The notes below the pieces were generated by a model. It saw only the letters and a program-made list of their open reading frames with translations. It searched no databases and was not told where the DNA came from. Made by a program: the position numbers and the translations under genes. Positions 21,608-31,920 of a DNA stretch of 64,000 nt are shown here, piece by piece. Within the stretch, counting starts at the first letter, position 1, and the number at the start of each line of letters is the position of its first letter. The stretch covers positions 737-64,736 of the forward strand of contig JBGPOW010000001.1 in assembly GCA_041488235.1 (NCBI GenBank), given 5' to 3'. The DNA is from Candidatus Binatia bacterium (GTDB lineage Bacteria > Desulfobacterota > Binatia > UTPRO1).

Positions 21608-23557
<1,950 letters not shown>

Positions 23558-23603
23558 GCCGCGCCACGCTCTGAGCCGTCGCACGAGACGGCTCGACGGA
23601 AGC

Positions 23604-24047
23604 TCAGCTCCCCGGGCGCCGCGCCCGGGGGGCTTTTTCGTCCGCGCTCGAACTGAGCGCGCCGATCGCGACTGCCGCCGCGACGAGCGCCGTGTCGCGC
23701 GCGACCGTGAGCACCGTCACCGGCGCACGCACGCTTCCGAAGCACCCGCAGTCGAGGTTGATGTCGCGGGCGAGCGCCTGCACTGCAGCGACGGTAAACG
23801 CGACGAGAAGTGCGGTCGCGAGGACGGCGGCGGCACGGACAGTGCGGGGATACAAAAGCCCGAGCCCGCAGACGATCTCGACGCCCGGCACCGTCGCCGA
23901 GAACGGCGCCACCAAAGGCGCCGGCAGCAGTCGATAGTTCGCGACGTCGGCGGCGAACGCACGGACGTCCGCGAGCTTTGCGACGCCCGCGTAGAGAAAG
24001 AGTGCGGCGAGCACCGTGCGCAGCAACCACCAGGAGATCACGCGCAT
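23604..24047 (-). CDS. MauE/DoxX-family membrane protein
   Basis: Four TM helices, the CGCFG motif and VPGVEIVCGLGLL. Confidence 0.7.
   Translation of the reverse strand: MRVISWWLLRTVLAALFLYAGVAKLADVRAFAADVANYRLLPAPLVAPFSATVPGVEIVCGLGLLYPRTVRAAAVLATALLVAFTVAAVQALARDINLDCGCFGSVRAPVTVLTVARDTALVAAAVAIGALSSSADEKAPRARRPGS
23610..23638 (+). terminator. Rho-independent terminator after groEL
   Basis: CCCCGGGCGCCGCGCCCGGGGGG stem-loop followed by CTTTTT. It overlaps the 3' end of the convergent MauE/DoxX gene. Confidence 0.6.
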
Positions 24048-24063
24048 CGCTTGCGGCTACGGG

Positions 24064-24531
24064 TCAGTTGCAGATTTCGCACGGCCCGGACGCGGCGCTC
24101 CCGCCGCCGTCACGCCAGGCCCGGAAGCCGCCGCTCAGGACACGCACGTCGCCGTACCCGCTCGCGGCGAGCGACTGCGCGACGGGACCCGGGTCGGCGT
24201 CCTCGCCGCCGTACAGGACGACGGTCGAAGATTTCGCGACGCTCGCCAGCCACTCTGGCGCCTCGGCGCTGCACGGCAAGTGCACGGCGTCGACGACGTG
24301 CCCGACGGCATATTCTGATGCGCCGCGCACGTCGCCGAAGATCGCTTCGTGTGCTTCCAGGAGGCGTATCGCCGCCGCGACGTCGATGCGCGCAGGCTCC
24401 AAGGACGCCATCGCGCACTCCGCGGTGCCTTCGGTTTCGGCAACCCAGGACCGCAGCACCGAGACGCCGGCCGGGTGCAGCGAGTTCACACAGAGCCCGA
24501 GGAGCGCCCCTGCGGTGGCGAGCGTGAGCAT
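24064..24531 (-). CDS. Rhodanese-like domain protein with signal peptide
   Basis: Internal ATG at 24531. MLTLATAGALLGLCV signal peptide. A rhodanese fold is inferred from DVRGASEYAVGHVVDAVHLP...VVLYGGED...GYGDVRVLSGGFRAW, although the catalytic Cys position reads ...YGGED rather than a canonical CxxGxR loop. Pairs with the MauE/DoxX gene. Confidence 0.7.
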   Translation of the reverse strand: MLTLATAGALLGLCVNSLHPAGVSVLRSWVAETEGTAECAMASLEPARIDVAAAIRLLEAHEAIFGDVRGASEYAVGHVVDAVHLPCSAEAPEWLASVAKSSTVVLYGGEDADPGPVAQSLAASGYGDVRVLSGGFRAWRDGGGSAASGPCEICN

Positions 24532-24744
24532 CTGCAATACCGTGCGCACCGTCCCGCATTGTCGCGTCCCGAGGCGCGACTCGCAACTCCGACGGGCGAT
24601 CGGTACGGCGTTGACGGACGAAGCCCGCCATTGCGTCACGTACGGGGAGCAAAACCAGCCAGTACCAGGCCAACCCGGCCCGAAATAGGCCGTCACCAAG
24701 CGGCGACGCATGAGCATCGTAGAGACGATCAAGAACGCGGTAAC

Positions 24745-24966
24745 TCAGCTCGCGCCGTCGAGCCCGAGATCATGGGCGAGCCGCTTCGGAATGACGAGCG
24801 TCCCCTGGTCGCCGGGAGACCGCACGTCGCTGGTGCGGTCGATCAAGTGCAGCGGCACGCCAATGCGTCGCCGGTCGGGCAGCTCGCAGATCAGGACGAG
24901 CCCGTTACTCACGGCACGGACGTGCGCCACGCGCACGAGATCGGAAACGGGGGAATCGTACAGCAT
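24745..24966 (-). CDS. Hypothetical small protein (73 aa), family unresolved
   Basis: The ORF sits between the rhodanese gene and the CheY-like regulator. Its C-terminus TLVIPKRLAHDLGLDG is loosely AbrB/SpoVT-like. Confidence 0.25.
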   Translation of the reverse strand: MLYDSPVSDLVRVAHVRAVSNGLVLICELPDRRRIGVPLHLIDRTSDVRSPGDQGTLVIPKRLAHDLGLDGAS

Positions 24967-25077
24967 AGTGGACCTGCTTCCTTGCAGAGGTTCCTAGCGC
25001 CTCCCCGCGCCCCTCAACCCGCCCCAATTCCGGCGAGAGATGTACTCCGAAGCGGGAAGGAAAAACTACGCGGATCT

Positions 25078-25524
25078 CTACGCGCGTAGCGTTGATCCTG
25101 CGGTGAACTGGGCGGGCGCGCGCTGACGTTCGCAGTGCCGGTCGACGGCCGCGACCACATCCGGCCCGTCGATCGGCTTCAGTAGAAACTCCCGAATGCC
25201 GACTTTCTTCGCCCGAGCATCATCCGCCACATCGCCGGACAGAATCACGACCGGAGTTTTCACGACCTCGGGGTGAGCCTTCATGCGCTCCCAGACCGTC
25301 CAGCCGTCCATCCCCGGCATGCGTACATCGAGGAGGATAACGCACGGTCGAAGGCCCGCCTGCAGCATGTCAAGCGCTTCCGGTCCCGACGCCGCTCCGA
25401 CCACATCGAAGCCCATCGCCTGAAGCAACGTGACAATCGCCTCCCGGGTGTCCGTATAGTCATCGACGACCAGCACGTTGTGGCGAGAGTGGATCTCGTG
25501 GGACACCCCCGATTGCGTCGGCAT
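25078..25524 (-). CDS. Single-domain response regulator (CheY-like receiver)
   Basis: VLVVDDYTDTREAIVTLLQAMGFDV...ILLDVRMPGMDGWTVWERMK...VILSG...K. Confidence 0.75.
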   Translation of the reverse strand: MPTQSGVSHEIHSRHNVLVVDDYTDTREAIVTLLQAMGFDVVGAASGPEALDMLQAGLRPCVILLDVRMPGMDGWTVWERMKAHPEVVKTPVVILSGDVADDARAKKVGIREFLLKPIDGPDVVAAVDRHCERQRAPAQFTAGSTLRA

Positions 25525-25643
25525 GCTTCGGGCCTAGTCGTGGGGCGGGTGCTAGTCAAAACGCGGCGAGGACACGTGCGCGTGGTCCGTTGCCGCACCG
25601 CCCATGGTCCTATCGGTGCTATGGACGCTGCCCACAGTAGTCA

Positions 25644-25710
25644 AATCCGAGCACTCACCCGCTGAAAACCGAGCACTCGACGTCCTGGCCGACCAACTCC
25701 GAGCAGTACT
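25644..25710. repeat. Array of three AATCCGAGCAC / CCGAGCAGTAC motifs with about 22-bp spacing. It is the left boundary of the accessory island and is inverted relative to the array at 27831-27889.
   Basis: aaatccgagcactc at 25644, aaaaccgagcactc at 25666, ctccgagcagtac at 25698. Confidence 0.5.
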
Positions 25711-25905
25711 TGACGATGAGGAGGGTCGGAGCCCTGGCGTCCATCGCGCCGACCGACGACCAGGGCAATCAAGCAAAGGGCCGCTGCTTGCACCCTGGCA
25801 GGTCAGCGCAGCGGCCCGTGGTCGGTTCTTTGGTTCAACGCACCCTGCCCACGGCTGGAACCGTGGGCAGGGCCGAACACCGAGTGGTGGACCACCCGAT
25901 GCCCG

Positions 25906-26962
25906 TTGCAGCTACGGATTCTGGTCCGCCACTTGGGGAAAGACAAGTGGCCCGTGAACGTCCTCTCGTCTGAGAAGCAAACCCGCGTGATCGCCGCTCT
26001 CACTGAAGGCTGCTCCGTCCGCGCGACCGAGCGTCTGACCGACGTGCATCAGGAGACGATTCTCAACCTGAGCCGCCGCGTCGGCGAGGGCTGCCACCGT
26101 CTCCTCGACGGCATGCTCCGTGGCCTTCAGGTCGGCGTGATCGAGCTCGACGAGCAGTGGTCGTTTATCGGCTGCAAGCAGAAGAACGTCCGCGACGGCG
26201 AGCGCGAGCGCGGCGACTCGTGGCTCTTCATCGCGCTCGATGCGACTAGCAAGGCCGTCCTCAGCTACCGCATCGGCAAGCGCACGACGCAGAACACGAT
26301 GGCGCTCGCGCAGGACTTGCACGCGCGGCTCGTGAACCGGCCGCAGATCACGGCCGATGGATTCGTGCCCTACGTCAACGCCATCGCCGACGTGTTCGAC
26401 CGCAAGGTGGACTTCGCGCAGCTCATGAAGCACTACGGCACGCCGGCCGGAAACGAGGCGGCGGTGCGCTACTCCCCGGGCTCCATAAGAGGCATCGAGA
26501 AGCAGGTCGTCTGCGGCGCACCCGACGAGACGAAGATCAGCACCTCGTACGTCGAACGCTTCAACCTCTCGACGCGGATGCACCTCCGGCGCTTCACGCG
26601 GCTCACGAACGCGTTCTCGAAAAAGCTCGCGAACCACCGCGCGGCGATCGCGCTGCACCTTGCGTACTACAACCTGGTGGCGCATCCACGAAACGATCCG
26701 CTGCACGCCCGCGATGGCGCTCGGCGTGACCGATCATCCGTGGACCGTGGCCGAGCTGGTCGAGGCGGCGCTCAGCGCGCCGGAACCGACGCCGCTCCTT
26801 CCGACGCAGCCGCCGCTCCCGTTCGGCATGAGCGCCGGGCGCGCGAAGGGTACGTGGGGCGGTGCGCTCGCGGATCGGCCGAGGCCGACCAAGAACAAGG
26901 GCAACCCTGGGCCGAAAAGATTCCGGGTGATCAAGGGCGGGCGCGATCGCGCGGGGTCGTAG
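25906..26962 (+). pseudogene. IS1-family transposase (InsAB-like fusion), frameshifted near the C-terminus
   Basis: IELDEQWSFIG..WLFIALDATSKAVLSYRIGKRT..ITADG..STSYVERFNLSTRMHLRRFTRLTNAFSKKLANH aligns block-by-block with E. coli IS1 InsB. The frame breaks after ...AYYNLV (ORF 25906..26985) and resumes in ORF 26660..26962 (RIHETIRCTPAMALGVTDH...KRFRVIKGG). The intact paralog at 29014..30045 reads through in a single frame. Confidence 0.7.
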
Positions 26963-27089
26963 CCCCTGCGCGGGGCAATCCTTGACGCTAGCAAGTGCTG
27001 TGCTACGCTTCGATCGAATTGCTGAGCAATCAACTCCTCGTAGTTGAATGGACTTTGGGCGCAGGGCATAGTCGTCGGTAGGAGGCCAG

Positions 27090-27329
27090 ATGCATTCAGA
27101 CTTCCTTTTCGCCCGCCCTTCCAGACTCGCAGGATTGGCGCGTCTACTCGATTTCTTCGGGACGTTCGACGACTACAACACGAGTCCGTCACGCCCGCTC
27201 GCTGACGCGCGCGCGGTATATACTGACTGGGTCGTTACGGCAGACGACATTCGCAACGCGATGGCCGCCGTGAAGGCGCTGGAGCGTGACCCAAGTCAGG
27301 GCGAGTTATTCCCAGCAGTCGCTGGGTAG
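27090..27329 (+). CDS. Hypothetical protein (79 aa), coupled to the DUF2335 gene
   Basis: Its TAG stop directly abuts the ATG of the next gene (gggTAGATGagc). No family recognised. Confidence 0.35.
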   Translation: MHSDFLFARPSRLAGLARLLDFFGTFDDYNTSPSRPLADARAVYTDWVVTADDIRNAMAAVKALERDPSQGELFPAVAG

Positions 27330-27767
27330 ATGAGCAAGAAGGGCCGGGACCGGCAACTCGCTCATCAGCGTCAGCAGATCACTGCTCAGCGGCGCCTTGA
27401 GATCTTCCAGGGTCCGCTTCCCTCTCCCGACGTCCTGATTCGCTACAACGATGCGGTTCCTAACGGAGCTGAGCGTATCCTTGTCATGGCCGAAGGGCAG
27501 GCGACTCACCGTCAGGGGCTGGAGCGCGCTGTCGTCAACGGCAACATCCGAGCGCAGGCCCGCGCTCAGCGCTACGGGCTAGTAATCATCCTTGCGGTCG
27601 TCGCTGTTGGCGCGTGGCTGATGTCGCAGGGAAAGGACGGCTACGGGTTCGGTACGATCCTCGCGGGACTCGCCAGCCTCGTAGGCGTGTTCATGTGGGG
27701 CCGGTATCGCCAAGAACGTGAACGGCGGGAAAAGGCAGAGCAGTTTCAAGGCTCACCCGTCGGATAG
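27330..27767 (+). CDS. DUF2335-family membrane protein
   Basis: GPLPSPDVLIRYNDAVPNGAERILVMAEGQATHRQGLE... followed by two TM helices, which fits my recollection of DUF2335. Confidence 0.55.
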   Translation: MSKKGRDRQLAHQRQQITAQRRLEIFQGPLPSPDVLIRYNDAVPNGAERILVMAEGQATHRQGLERAVVNGNIRAQARAQRYGLVIILAVVAVGAWLMSQGKDGYGFGTILAGLASLVGVFMWGRYRQERERREKAEQFQGSPVG

Positions 27768-27830
27768 AGCGTCGCGACTTCCCGCTACGACTCACGACGG
27801 CGAACGGCAATCGCGCTGTTGGCGTTAGGT

Positions 27831-27972
27831 GGTCGGATTCGCCCGCGTCACGGGGGTGCTCGGATTTGACGCCCAGGGTGCTCGGATTCGGCGGCGCGAC
27901 GGCCAGAACCGAGCAGTACCCGACTAGCGGTACTGTCCTAACTAGGACACCCGCGGATTGAAAGTAGGACAC
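27831..27972. repeat. Repeat-rich junction with three GGTGCTCGGATT motifs of about 22-bp period, the 15-bp CAGTACCCGACTAGC repeat, the palindrome GTCCTAACTAGGAC and two TAGGACAC iterons
   Basis: ggtcggattc at 27831, ggtgctcggattt at 27855, ggtgctcggattc at 27877, gagcagtacccgactagc at 27911-27928, gtcctaactaggacac at 27935-27950, taggacac at 27965. Confidence 0.55.
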
Positions 27973-28099
27973 TCGCGTCTACTGGCCAAAATCGGGGGGG
28001 CCGTTTTTTCCTCGACGGCCACCCCTCGACCGTGGCACCCTGCGCGCACCAAATCTCGGCCGCCCCCGTCGGGCCCCCTAACGCCAGGAGGATTAGCCC

Positions 28100-28942
28100 A
28101 TGTTCCGCGTCTCTCGTCTGCTCGTCGCCGCCTCGCTCACACTCGCCGCTGCGTCGCCCGCGCGCGCCGGAACGCTCAAGTGCCCCGCCGACTCGGTGAA
28201 GGTCGGCAACGCCTGCATCGACCTCTACGAGACCAGTGTCTGGCAGATCGCCCCGTCAAACACGTCCCTCGTCAAGGCGGTGCAGAAAGGCAAGGCGACG
28301 CTCGCCACCCTGACTGCGGGCGGCGCCGTGCAGCTCGGCTGCACCTTCGCACCATTCAGTCAGACGGCCTATCCGACGAATTTCCCGAATAGCGGCCAGT
28401 GGACGCCGGTCCTCGGATCGGTGCCGCCGAGCCCGGGCGTCTACGCGGTCTCGATCCCCGGCGTGCTGCCGAGCTCGTGCATCACCTGGTTCCAAGCGGC
28501 ACAGGCGTGCGGCGTCTCGGGGAAGCGTTTACTCACGAATCTTGAGTGGCAGAATGCGGCGGCGGGGACGCCCGATCCGGGAACGGACAACGGCACGACG
28601 GACTGCAACATCTCCACCGCCGGCAACCCGGTGAACACCGGATCGCGATCGAACTGCAAGTCGAGCTGGGGCGCGTTCGACATGGTCGGCAACGTCGACG
28701 AGTGGGTGGCGGATTGGGCGGATCTCAACACGACGGGCTGCACCGATTCGACGACCTTCTTCGGCTTCGCCGGCACCGGTGATCAAATATGTTTCGGCGG
28801 GGACGGTAGTCCGAAAGCTCCGGGGGCGTTGCGTCGCGGCGGCATTTGGGTCAGCGGCGCGGGCGCCGGCGTCTTCTCCGTGAATGCCGCCTTCGGTCCG
28901 GCGTTCTCGTTCCTCAACGTCGGGTTCCGCTGTGCCCGCTGA
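28100..28942 (+). CDS. Secreted FGE-sulfatase/SUMF1-domain protein (formylglycine-generating-enzyme family)
   Basis: Signal peptide MFRVSRLLVAASLTLAAASPARA. C-terminal FDMVGNVDEWVADW...RGGIW...GFRCAR, the hallmark ending of the SUMF1/FGE fold. Confidence 0.7.
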   Translation: MFRVSRLLVAASLTLAAASPARAGTLKCPADSVKVGNACIDLYETSVWQIAPSNTSLVKAVQKGKATLATLTAGGAVQLGCTFAPFSQTAYPTNFPNSGQWTPVLGSVPPSPGVYAVSIPGVLPSSCITWFQAAQACGVSGKRLLTNLEWQNAAAGTPDPGTDNGTTDCNISTAGNPVNTGSRSNCKSSWGAFDMVGNVDEWVADWADLNTTGCTDSTTFFGFAGTGDQICFGGDGSPKAPGALRRGGIWVSGAGAGVFSVNAAFGPAFSFLNVGFRCAR

Positions 28943-29000
28943 GTCGTCCCGGGCTTTGGCCCTTTGACAGTTTGATCTTTGGCTCTCCTCGGGTGTGGAG

Positions 29001-29032
29001 GGGCGGGCGGCTGTTACGGCTGCCGCCCGCCC
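29001..29032. terminator. GC-rich hairpin (11-bp stem) overlapping the stop of the second IS1 transposase, between the FGE gene (+) and the transposase gene (-)
   Basis: GGGCGGGCGGC-tgttacggct-GCCGCCCGCCC. No T-run. Confidence 0.3.
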
Positions 29033-30045
29033 TTGATCACGCGGAAGCGTTTCGGTCCTAGATTACCGCGCGTCTTGTTCGGCCGCGGGCGATCCGCCAG
29101 CGCGCCGCCCCAGGTGTTCTTCGCGCGACCGGCGCTCATGCCTCTGATCGGCTCCGGCGCGGGCGCCATCGGCGGCGCCGTCGGCGCGCTCAACGCCGCG
29201 TCGATCAACTCGCCGATCGTCCACACGTGGTCAGTGATGCCGAGCGCCATTGCAGGCGTGCAGCGCAACGCCTCGTGGACGCGGCAGAGATTGTAGTGGG
29301 CGATGTGCAGCGCAATCGCGGCCTGGTGATTCGCGAGCTTCTTCGAGAAGCCGTTCGTCAGGCGCGTGAACCGGCGTGACGCCATCCGCGTCGTCAAGTT
29401 GAAACGCTCGACGTAGCTCGTGCTGATCTTCGTGGGGTCTGGGTCGCCCTGAAGCACGGTGCGCTCCGTGCTTCTTATCTTGCCCGGTGAGTAGCGAACC
29501 GCGGCCTCGTTTCCGATCGTCACGGCGTAGTTCTTCACGATGGTCGCGAAGTCCACGTCGTCGCCGAACGCGCGCTCGATTGCATCGGGGTACGCGGACC
29601 AGCCGTCCGCCGTGATCTGCGGCCGGTTGAGCACCCGTGCGCGGAGATCGGAGACGATGGCGCGGGTGTTCTCGGTGCTGCGCTTCCCGACGACGTACGT
29701 CAGGACGGCCTTGCTCGTCGCATCGAGCGCGAGGAACAAGTAGCAGTCGCCGTATTCCTTCGGATCTTCGGGGCGGACGCGCTTCGCCTTCTTGAACAAA
29801 AACGACCAGCTCTCATCAAGCTCGATTACGCTGACCTGAAGGTTGCGGAGCATGCCGTCGAGCAGCCGACGGCATCCGTCGCCGACCTGGACGCCGAGCC
29901 GCATCACGGTGTCGCGGTGCGTGTCGGTCAGGCGCTCCGTCGCGCGGATCGAGCAACCTTCCGTCAGCGCGCCGACGATGCGGGTTTGGGTCTCACGAGA
30001 GAGGGTATTCACGGGTGTTGCCTTCCTCCGAGGGGCGACCCACAA
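29014..30045 (-). CDS. IS1-family transposase (InsAB-like fusion), apparently intact
   Basis: 343 aa with an HTH N-terminus (TRIVGALTEGCSIRATERLTD) and IELDESWSF...YLFLALDATSKAVLTYVVGKRS...ITADGWSAYPD...STSYVERFNLTTRMASRRFTRLTNGFSKKLANHQAAIALHIAHYNLCRVHEALRCTPAMALG... It is about 70% identical to the frameshifted copy by eye and lies in the opposite orientation. Confidence 0.8.
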   Translation of the reverse strand: MWVAPRRKATPVNTLSRETQTRIVGALTEGCSIRATERLTDTHRDTVMRLGVQVGDGCRRLLDGMLRNLQVSVIELDESWSFLFKKAKRVRPEDPKEYGDCYLFLALDATSKAVLTYVVGKRSTENTRAIVSDLRARVLNRPQITADGWSAYPDAIERAFGDDVDFATIVKNYAVTIGNEAAVRYSPGKIRSTERTVLQGDPDPTKISTSYVERFNLTTRMASRRFTRLTNGFSKKLANHQAAIALHIAHYNLCRVHEALRCTPAMALGITDHVWTIGELIDAALSAPTAPPMAPAPEPIRGMSAGRAKNTWGGALADRPRPNKTRGNLGPKRFRVIKGGRQP

Positions 30046-30089
30046 TCGAAGCGTCTGACGGCATCGGGTGGGTAACCGCTCGGTGTTGG

Positions 30090-30125
30090 CCCCGCTCTCG
30101 GCTCCAACCGGGAGCGGGGTTTTTG
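30090..30125 (+). terminator. Rho-independent-type terminator (CCCCGCTC...GAGCGGGG + TTTTT) in the IS left end, oriented to block plus-strand read-through
   Basis: 8-bp stem, 14-nt loop, T5 run. An equivalent position in copy 1 has a hairpin without a T-run. Confidence 0.4.
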
Positions 30126-30219
30126 TTTGCGGTCCACTTGCTCACGAGACGAATGTTGCCACATTCGTCCTACGTAGTCAAGCGTTGACGCCGTAGGCTT
30201 TCTGTGGCAACAATCGTCC

Positions 30220-30387
30220 ATGCCTAAACCCAAACGAAAGCCGAAGGCCCTCCGGAAAGAGGACTCCATTCGGATTCGCGTCTCGGCCGAGCAAAAAAAG
30301 ACGCTGACGGCCGCTGCCGAGCGGGCGGGCCTGGACGTGTCGTCCTGGCTCCGCACGCTCGGCATGCGGGAGGCCGCTAGCGGCTAA
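30220..30387 (+). CDS. Small ribbon-helix-helix protein (CopG/MobC-like), 55 aa. Not in the ORF track because it is shorter than 60 aa.
   Basis: ATG at 30220 gives MPKPKRKPKALRKEDSIRIRVSAEQKKTLTAAAERAGLDVSSWLRTLGMREAASG, a classic RVS..EK..L...A...G.S.S.WLR pattern. A TTGACG -35-like element lies about 30 nt upstream. Confidence 0.5.
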   Translation: MPKPKRKPKALRKEDSIRIRVSAEQKKTLTAAAERAGLDVSSWLRTLGMREAASG

Positions 30388-30651
30388 GCCCGCGTCTTCT
30401 CACGCCCCAGCGGCGGATCTTCGTGCGATACGTACTGATCCACGCGGGCGTGATGCCGGCCATCCACCTGAGTACCCGTGCTCTCATGGGTACACCTCCA
30501 CCTCTTCAAAAAGGCGGCGGAATGTGGAAGGATCGCGGTTAGTTGGTTCTTCCGCGAGCTTCGTTTCCCGTCGCTCGTTGCAGTTCTGGCGAACTGCGTG
30601 CCGAGGTCTTGAACACCTCGGCACGCATCGCCGCTCCCGCCCAGCAGCAAA

Positions 30652-30855
30652 CTAAGTCACGGCCTCGTTGACACCTCCGTTTCGCGCGCCTCGATGCGCG
30701 CGAGTTTTCTCGCGGATGGCCTTCTGCACCGCGTCGGCAACGAAGGCTTCCATGGTCGTGTCGCATCGCGCGGCGACGATCTTGACCTCGTTGCGGAACG
30801 ATTTGCTAACCCGGACGGCGAGCAGGACCGCGTGTTGTTCGGACTTCATACCCAT
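30652..30855 (-). CDS. Small ribbon-helix-helix-like DNA-binding protein (67 aa from an internal ATG)
   Basis: MGMKSEQHAVLLAVRVSKSFRNEVKIVAARCDTTMEAFVADAVQKAIREK shows a beta-strand plus two-helix RHH pattern. The track ORF extends to 30936, but that start would collide with the divergent gene at 30935. A perfect 10-bp-stem hairpin GTGCCGAGGT/ACCTCGGCAC lies about 30 nt downstream. Confidence 0.4.
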   Translation of the reverse strand: MGMKSEQHAVLLAVRVSKSFRNEVKIVAARCDTTMEAFVADAVQKAIREKTRAHRGARNGGVNEAVT

Positions 30856-30934
30856 ACCCTCGCACAGTCTGACGGGTAACTCTAGCTTTTTAGCCGTCAG
30901 GTGATACCGTCTGACGCAGAAAAGTAACGCGCAC

Positions 30935-31843
30935 ATGGCCGAGTCCAGTCAGACACGTGGAAACGAGCGGCGAACCGACGCGATGCATTCGCTTGCGCGC
31001 GCCGTCGCGTTCGCCAATCTCGACTTGGAATGCCCGGAAGCGCAGTGGGAAACGCAACGCCACATCGTCGGCACTAAGGCGACGCCGCTGCGCGTACTCT
31101 GCCACTTTCGATTCCCGGATGAATTCGGGCGCGCTTTGCGGATGCCACCCGGCGGTCGCGAGGCCAAAGTGACGAGCGGTCCCCGGCAGCTCGTGCCGAT
31201 TGACCTGCTCGACACTGAAGACCCGCTGGAAGCGCAGCGCCACATGCGCACGCTCCTCACGGACATCATCACGGGCAACTCGCGCGGCGTCATCGCCGCG
31301 TTGCAGTCGGTCACGGTTTCCGTCCGTATGGGTGTCGCGATGGCCCGCGACGACACGAAGCGGTCCCGGCCATCACGGCGTCATCCGTCGCTGGACGTGT
31401 GGTATGAGTCGCCGCTCGGCTACGACGAGCTGCGCTACGGTGTCGTGCTCGGTGGGGTCGCTACGCTCTATCACCGCCTCGGCCGATGCCGGTCGTGCAA
31501 TCGGTTCATCCTCGCCAAGACCGACCGTCCAGTACGGTACTGTGCTAACCGGGAGTGCCAGCCGCGCGGAGCGCCCAAGCCGCGCGGAAAGGCGCCGAGC
31601 GTAACAGCCGGCTACAAGCGCCAACAGCGCGCGCGGCAACAGCGGTGGGACGAGCATCGCGACCGCATGCGAGCGGCGTTGAACGGCACGCCGTCCGTGC
31701 GCGGCCTCACGAAGCTCGTGCGCCAGGGAGAACGACTGTTGGAGGAGTGCTTCCGGTGGAAGGAGTCACCAGCGCGGAAAGATGCGGCGCGCGTGCTGGA
31801 TCAAGCCCGCGACCGAATTAGGACACTCGGAGCTTCAACTTAG
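30935..31843 (+). CDS. Hypothetical 302-aa protein with a C4 zinc ribbon (CRSCNRF...YCANRECQ) and a basic C-terminal region
   Basis: Long clean ORF. No family recognised. Its last codons and stop lie inside the TAGGACAC iteron array. Confidence 0.5.
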   Translation: MAESSQTRGNERRTDAMHSLARAVAFANLDLECPEAQWETQRHIVGTKATPLRVLCHFRFPDEFGRALRMPPGGREAKVTSGPRQLVPIDLLDTEDPLEAQRHMRTLLTDIITGNSRGVIAALQSVTVSVRMGVAMARDDTKRSRPSRRHPSLDVWYESPLGYDELRYGVVLGGVATLYHRLGRCRSCNRFILAKTDRPVRYCANRECQPRGAPKPRGKAPSVTAGYKRQQRARQQRWDEHRDRMRAALNGTPSVRGLTKLVRQGERLLEECFRWKESPARKDAARVLDQARDRIRTLGAST

Positions 31844-31880
31844 GACACTGGCGGGGAAGATAGGACAGTACCCGACTAGC
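31819..31880. repeat. Three TAGGACA(C/G) iterons at 22-bp spacing followed by the 15-bp direct repeat CAGTACCCGACTAGC. Right boundary of the island.
   Basis: taggacac at 31819 and 31841, taggacag at 31861, cagtacccgactagc at 31866-31880. The same 15-mer occurs at 27914-27928. The palindrome GGTCCTATAGG follows at 31906. Confidence 0.55.
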
Positions 31881-31920
31881 ATTTGCGTTGACTTACCGGG
31901 CGACGGTCCTATAGGTTTTC

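Follow-up and report, generated by a model that had tools for sequence, protein, structure and literature searches.

Results

The window, that is the whole 64-kb stretch of DNA analysed here, contains a segment upstream of ffh (start 31921) that we call E1 (27929..31872). E1 carries the genes for a secreted 280-aa protein with an FGE-sulfatase-like domain (28100..28942, + strand; PF03781, E 2e-12), a 343-aa single-ORF IS1-family DDE transposase with an N-terminal helix-turn-helix (29014..30045, - strand; PF03400, NF033558), a 55-aa NikA/MobA-like ribbon-helix-helix (RHH) protein (30220..30387, + strand; PF21983, E 6e-8), a small 65-aa protein (30652..30849, - strand) and a 302-aa zinc-ribbon protein of a rare family (30935..31843, + strand). 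The 65-aa protein, taken for an RHH protein in an earlier sequence-only reading of this DNA, gave no family match; in L002 it is likewise called as 65 aa. A hairpin of 14 pairs followed by a T-run (30088..30121, + strand) lies in a conserved leader upstream of the transposase gene; it is kept across related elements with compensatory changes, and its counterpart in the adjacent element E2 lies at about 25840-25903. E2 (25710..27920, + strand, left boundary uncertain) is an older, related and defective element, with a frameshifted IS1-family transposase gene (about 25954-26985, frameshift near 26680), a 79-aa ORF (27090-27329) and a DUF2335 protein (27330-27767). All four assemblies spanning this stretch (the window, L083, L084 and L085) contain it, and a search for an intact E2 counterpart found none.

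The ends of E1 are read directly from the window. The termini, GGTACTGTCCTA(A/T)CT, form inverted repeats identical at 14 of 15 positions (score 13, shuffle maximum 10) that fit the IS1 family signature GGnnnTG. The left repeat, GGTACTGTCCTAACT (27929..27943, + strand), holds the terminal copy of the repeat core TGTCCTA, and the right one, GGTACTGTCCTATCT from outside in (31858..31872, - strand), holds TAGGACA at 31861. On both sides E1 is bordered by a perfect 8-bp direct repeat, CGACTAGC (27921..27928 and 31873..31880), present as a single copy in L083. Close to the transposase gene itself no inverted repeats were found (best score 7, null mean 7.9). The "intact IS1 copy" formerly described as a separate nested insertion sequence is the transposase that belongs to the 3.9-kb unit as a whole, and the unit is assigned the strand of that gene (-). 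We consider it highly probable that 27929-31872 is a complete 3,944-bp IS1-family transposon with passenger genes, a "transporter IS".

The sequence search of the window returned exactly two copies of the 15-mer CAGTACCCGACTAGC, at 27914-27928 and 31866-31880, as reported before, and no further copy at up to 2 mismatches (chance expectation 0.03). This 15-mer consists of 7 bp (CAGTACC) and the 8-bp duplication, which have separate origins. At the right copy CAGTACC is the right terminus of E1, whereas at the left copy it is the terminus of E2; the 15-bp "direct repeat" is therefore an 8-bp duplication joined to a 7-bp family terminus, because E1 landed beside the E2 terminus. Its interpretation as a target duplication holds for the 8 bp and fails for the remaining 7 bp, which are element termini. 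This 7 + 8 bp make-up and the 12-15 bp terminal inverted repeat had both been overlooked.

An unoccupied site for E1 is directly observed in L083, a different NCBI assembly, which is 99.93% identical over window positions 22461-27928 and then resumes at 31866. L083 carries E2, with its left-type terminus at the unoccupied site, and one copy of the 8-mer, and lacks E1. It has CCCC beside the 8-mer where the window has CCC, so that the pre-insertion sequence is not matched base for base, and a precise loss of E1 could in theory explain L083, which would then not represent the pre-insertion state. The proposal that the segment is a discrete mobile insertion is borne out by its absence as a whole from L083, and variable content between relatives, by which mobility was to be judged, is seen in this near-identical genome without the segment.

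The repeats previously called iterons reproduce the core of the terminal repeat at subterminal positions. In the window, TAGGACAC occurs only at 27943, 27965, 31819 and 31841, and with the additional TAGGACA sites at 31861 (+) and 27934-27940 (-) there are 6 TAGGACA sites in 64 kb, all at the two ends of E1 (1.05 expected; no shuffle reached 6). The arrays reported at both ends are real, with spacings of 22 bp at the left end and of 22 and 20 bp at the right end. The two left sites (27943..27971, + strand; cores 27943-27949 and 27965-27971) are flipped relative to the terminal copy, while the two right sites (31819..31847, + strand; cores 31819-31825 and 31841-31847) are oriented like it and overlap the 302-aa gene at its last codons, stop codon included. 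The palindrome GTCCTAACTAGGAC described at 27935 is present (27935-27948) and is the terminal repeat copy next to the first flipped copy. At about 13-14 bp, the full repeated site extends beyond TAGGACAC; its consensus on the opposite strand is (G)AGTG[T/G]C[C/T]TAATTT. Neither this length nor the second repeat type, CCGAGCAC, had been noticed. Throughout the family, right ends have a 6/26/48 or 6/36/58 layout in a single orientation and left ends a terminal copy with two flipped copies; the left layout, 15/37 or 25/47, is also found in relatives, and the right layout of E1, 6/26/48, is identical in L003/L004 and relatives. The core of the subterminal sites changes along with each element's own terminus.

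CCGAGCAC also shows 22-bp spacing, at 25647/25669 on the + strand and 27856/27878 on the - strand. The latter pair, flipped (27856-27863 and 27878-27885), forms with the terminus GGTACTGCTCGG (27909-27920) the left-type end of E2 (27856..27920, - strand). The former belongs to a third junction, "site 0" (25647..25709, + strand), a right-type three-site array of E2's core composed of CCGAGCAC at 25647 and 25669 and CCGAGCAGTAC at 25699-25709, in a 6/36/58 layout like that of L021 and L053. The reported junction sequence CCGAGCAGTAC|TTGACG does exist, at 25699-25715. Its terminus faces the E2 transposase gene, a non-canonical orientation unlike that of a simple intact element. This junction is a right-type end of the E2 kind and an orphan; a search for a rearrangement partner found none. 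Of the suggested nested insertions, it holds that the locus took its shape from more than one insertion, but E1 and E2 abut and neither lies inside the other.

On the other side of E1, the sequence reads as a promoter-like TTGACT-N16-TATAGG (31888..31915, + strand) upstream of ffh, which is also present in the E1-free L083. We regard it as a putative ffh promoter, chromosomal and outside E1; a promoter scanner made no call at this position. ffh is an essential gene, and E1 landed just upstream of it. The palindrome GGTCCTATAGG, at 31905-31915 (one base off the earlier coordinate), is indeed present. It does not belong to the repeat system, because it lies outside E1, occurs in the genome without E1 and overlaps the -10-like hexamer of the putative ffh promoter. 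These promoter-like hexamers, and the earlier treatment of the IS1 copy as separate, would fit a small ordinary IS1 copy lying by chance inside an unrelated duplicated regulatory region, with the 15-mer and TAGGACAC as host motifs upstream of ffh. Such an arrangement is extremely improbable: the transposase gene has no close inverted repeats, TAGGACA is confined to the ends of E1 within the 64-kb window, the entire segment is missing from L083, and the same composite structure is found in many genomes at unrelated sites.

The recurrence of the transposon structure across a family is likewise a direct observation. About 25 other elements in genome contigs, mostly Candidatus Binatia MAGs, have this transposase between GG[T/C][A/G]CTG... 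inverted repeats (lengths 1.2-8.6 kb) and perfect 8/8 duplications that all differ; about 0.1 such duplications would be expected by chance (estimate) among the 6,921 inverted-repeat pairs tested. The duplication length in the family is 8 bp, not 9, with 26 different flanks in one comparison. The exact three-site right-end pattern gave >120 metagenomic matches against roughly 0.1 expected (estimate), and the 81 right ends analysed have 79 distinct 8-bp flanks. For many of the metagenomic arrays no left end or transposase could be matched, mostly since contigs are short; L097 and L120, with 13-14 kb of "inside" sequence each, showed no paired left end or transposase. The transposase is the only gene common to all bracketed elements, and deletion derivatives without it still keep termini and duplications.

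These flanks bear on the proposal that the repeats are att sites, in which a site-specific integrative element would integrate as a circle, the 15-mer being the attL/attR core and the TAGGACAC arrays arm-type recombinase or excisionase sites. The segment is bracketed by an exact 15-bp direct repeat, and in L001 a homolog with 51% identity to the 302-aa protein adjoins a serine recombinase, an HTH_17 excisionase-like gene and a large tyrosine integrase. E1, however, has no integrase or recombinase gene and ends in IS1-type inverted repeats, and 7 of the 15 bp are already at the unoccupied site as the E2 terminus. Since the 8-bp duplications and flanks of the family are unrelated to one another, there is no att site, and we judge an integrative element very improbable.

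Among the genes of E1, those for the FGE-like, RHH and 302-aa proteins are passengers that vary between elements. The FGE-like gene is not present in other family members, while homologs of the 55-aa RHH protein, a passenger or accessory protein, occur in 4 other bracketed elements (ORF family F5). Among the bracketed elements compared, the 302-aa gene is found in E1 only, and the sole other IS1-type copy found is in L003/L004. A search of 1.8 billion representatives gave only 14 relatives of the protein, and it has no match in Pfam or NCBIfam; its predicted structure (pLDDT 85) weakly resembles the fold of a DUF1470/CGNR zinc-finger protein. Small DNA-binding proteins (RHH, HTH_3) are frequent passengers, and some relatives encode a ParA-like ATPase.

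Plasmid iterons typically have 22-bp spacing. This spacing, the resemblance of one RHH protein to NikA/MobA-type plasmid proteins and the ParA-like ATPase of some relatives would suit an integrated iteron plasmid or a replication/partition locus, with the repeats bound by a Rep/ParB-like protein for which the 302-aa or RHH proteins would be candidates. There is, nevertheless, very little chance of this: the arrays are split over both transposon termini and follow the terminal inverted-repeat core, profile searches detected no Rep family or other initiator gene, each of the 302-aa, RHH and ParA genes is confined to a minority of the elements bearing these arrays, and similarity in the plasmid database is limited to IS1 transposases. 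Alternatively, E1 could be a transposon as proposed here whose subterminal repeats are operators for passenger regulators (RHH or 302-aa) controlling transposition or expression. In E1 and L003 alike, the right array extends into the 3' end of the 302-aa gene, although the two proteins are just 40% identical; small DNA-binding passengers are frequent, and the predicted 302-aa fold bears a weak likeness to a zinc-finger family whose members are putative nucleic-acid binders. We find this very unlikely, as the same arrays occur in elements without all these genes, carrying P63C-domain or other proteins, the subterminal sites copy the terminal repeat that the transposase must recognise, and the helix-turn-helix of the transposase co-varies with the core. 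The earlier suggestion of the RHH or 302-aa proteins as binders is not sustained, both genes being missing from most elements with the same repeat architecture.

The transposase matched the Pfam family PF03400 (DDE_Tnp_IS1) with E 6e-10, over the gathering score. Its best NCBIfam match was NF033558 "IS1 family transposase" (E 3e-18, 66 bits), under the curated cutoff of 100; the alignment to the IS1 model starts near position 39 of the model, so that the N-terminal portion of InsA appears to be missing. E1 belongs to a divergent IS1-family branch rather than to classical IS1, because this score is under the cutoff and its size is far above that of a typical IS1. Identity in the N-terminal region falls from 0.74 between elements with the same core to 0.63 with a different core, compared to 0.73 and 0.71 for the catalytic domain. 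The putative recognition helix co-varies with the repeat core, a pattern confounded by shared descent.

Discussion

In the mechanism that we propose for the E1 transposon, the N-terminal helix-turn-helix of the transposase most likely binds three sites of ~13 bp per end: the terminal inverted repeat itself plus a pair of subterminal copies, with a spacing of about two turns of the helix. The bound ends would be brought together, cleaved at their GG termini and inserted into a staggered 8-bp cut, whose repair would give the CGACTAGC duplication. E1 went in immediately next to the E2 terminus, or no more than 1 bp away from it, 16 bp upstream of the -35-like hexamer ahead of ffh. We infer the transposase as binder of the sites and, likewise, a purpose for the left/right asymmetry; the chemistry may be copy-and-paste or cointegrate, as tabulated for IS1.

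E1 is a mobile element of an ordinary kind whose three-site ends are unusually elaborate. Published tables list GGnnnTG ends, duplications of 8-9 bp and DDE chemistry for the IS1 family (PMC10425158 Table 8; PMC6807381), and E1 shares an IS1-related DDE transposase, GGnnnTG inverted repeats and an 8-bp duplication (PMC10425158; PMC6807381). It also shares passengers within its inverted repeats with the transporter IS (tIS), an established class with passenger genes inside the inverted repeats (PMC9330008). E1 differs from IS1 in its size (3.9 kb, against a tabulated 0.74-1.18 kb), in having a single long ORF for the transposase in place of frameshift-joined insA/insB', and in three left/right asymmetric transposase-type sites per end. 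To our knowledge, such ends are undescribed for IS1. Single-ORF and long ISMhu11-type IS1 subgroups are listed in ISfinder.

The ends of Tn7, Mu and Tn402/Tn5053 have multiple subterminal transposase-binding sites and are functionally distinct at left and right. E1 is similar in having several copies of a ~13-22-bp site in the first ~70 bp of each end, with about 22-bp phasing, and in the number or orientation of sites differing between left and right. In contrast to these elements, its transposase family is unrelated, it has no TnsB/MuA-type or ATPase partner genes, its duplication is 8 bp and not 5 bp, and at its left end the internal sites run opposite to the terminal one. With iteron-type plasmid origins E1 has direct repeats at 22-bp spacing in common, but it lacks an initiator, its repeats are copies of the inverted repeat split over two termini, and elements of its type are chromosomal insertions with target duplications. 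Inverted-repeat targeting of resident copies is described for IS30- and IS3-family elements, and in a similar way the target 8-mer of E1 directly abuts the E2 terminus. Unlike in those systems, the abutting E1 and E2 differ in repeat specificity, and the spacer equals the duplication length. Facing family termini exactly 8 bp apart were found in 4 of 129 flanks, compared to 0.05 expected.

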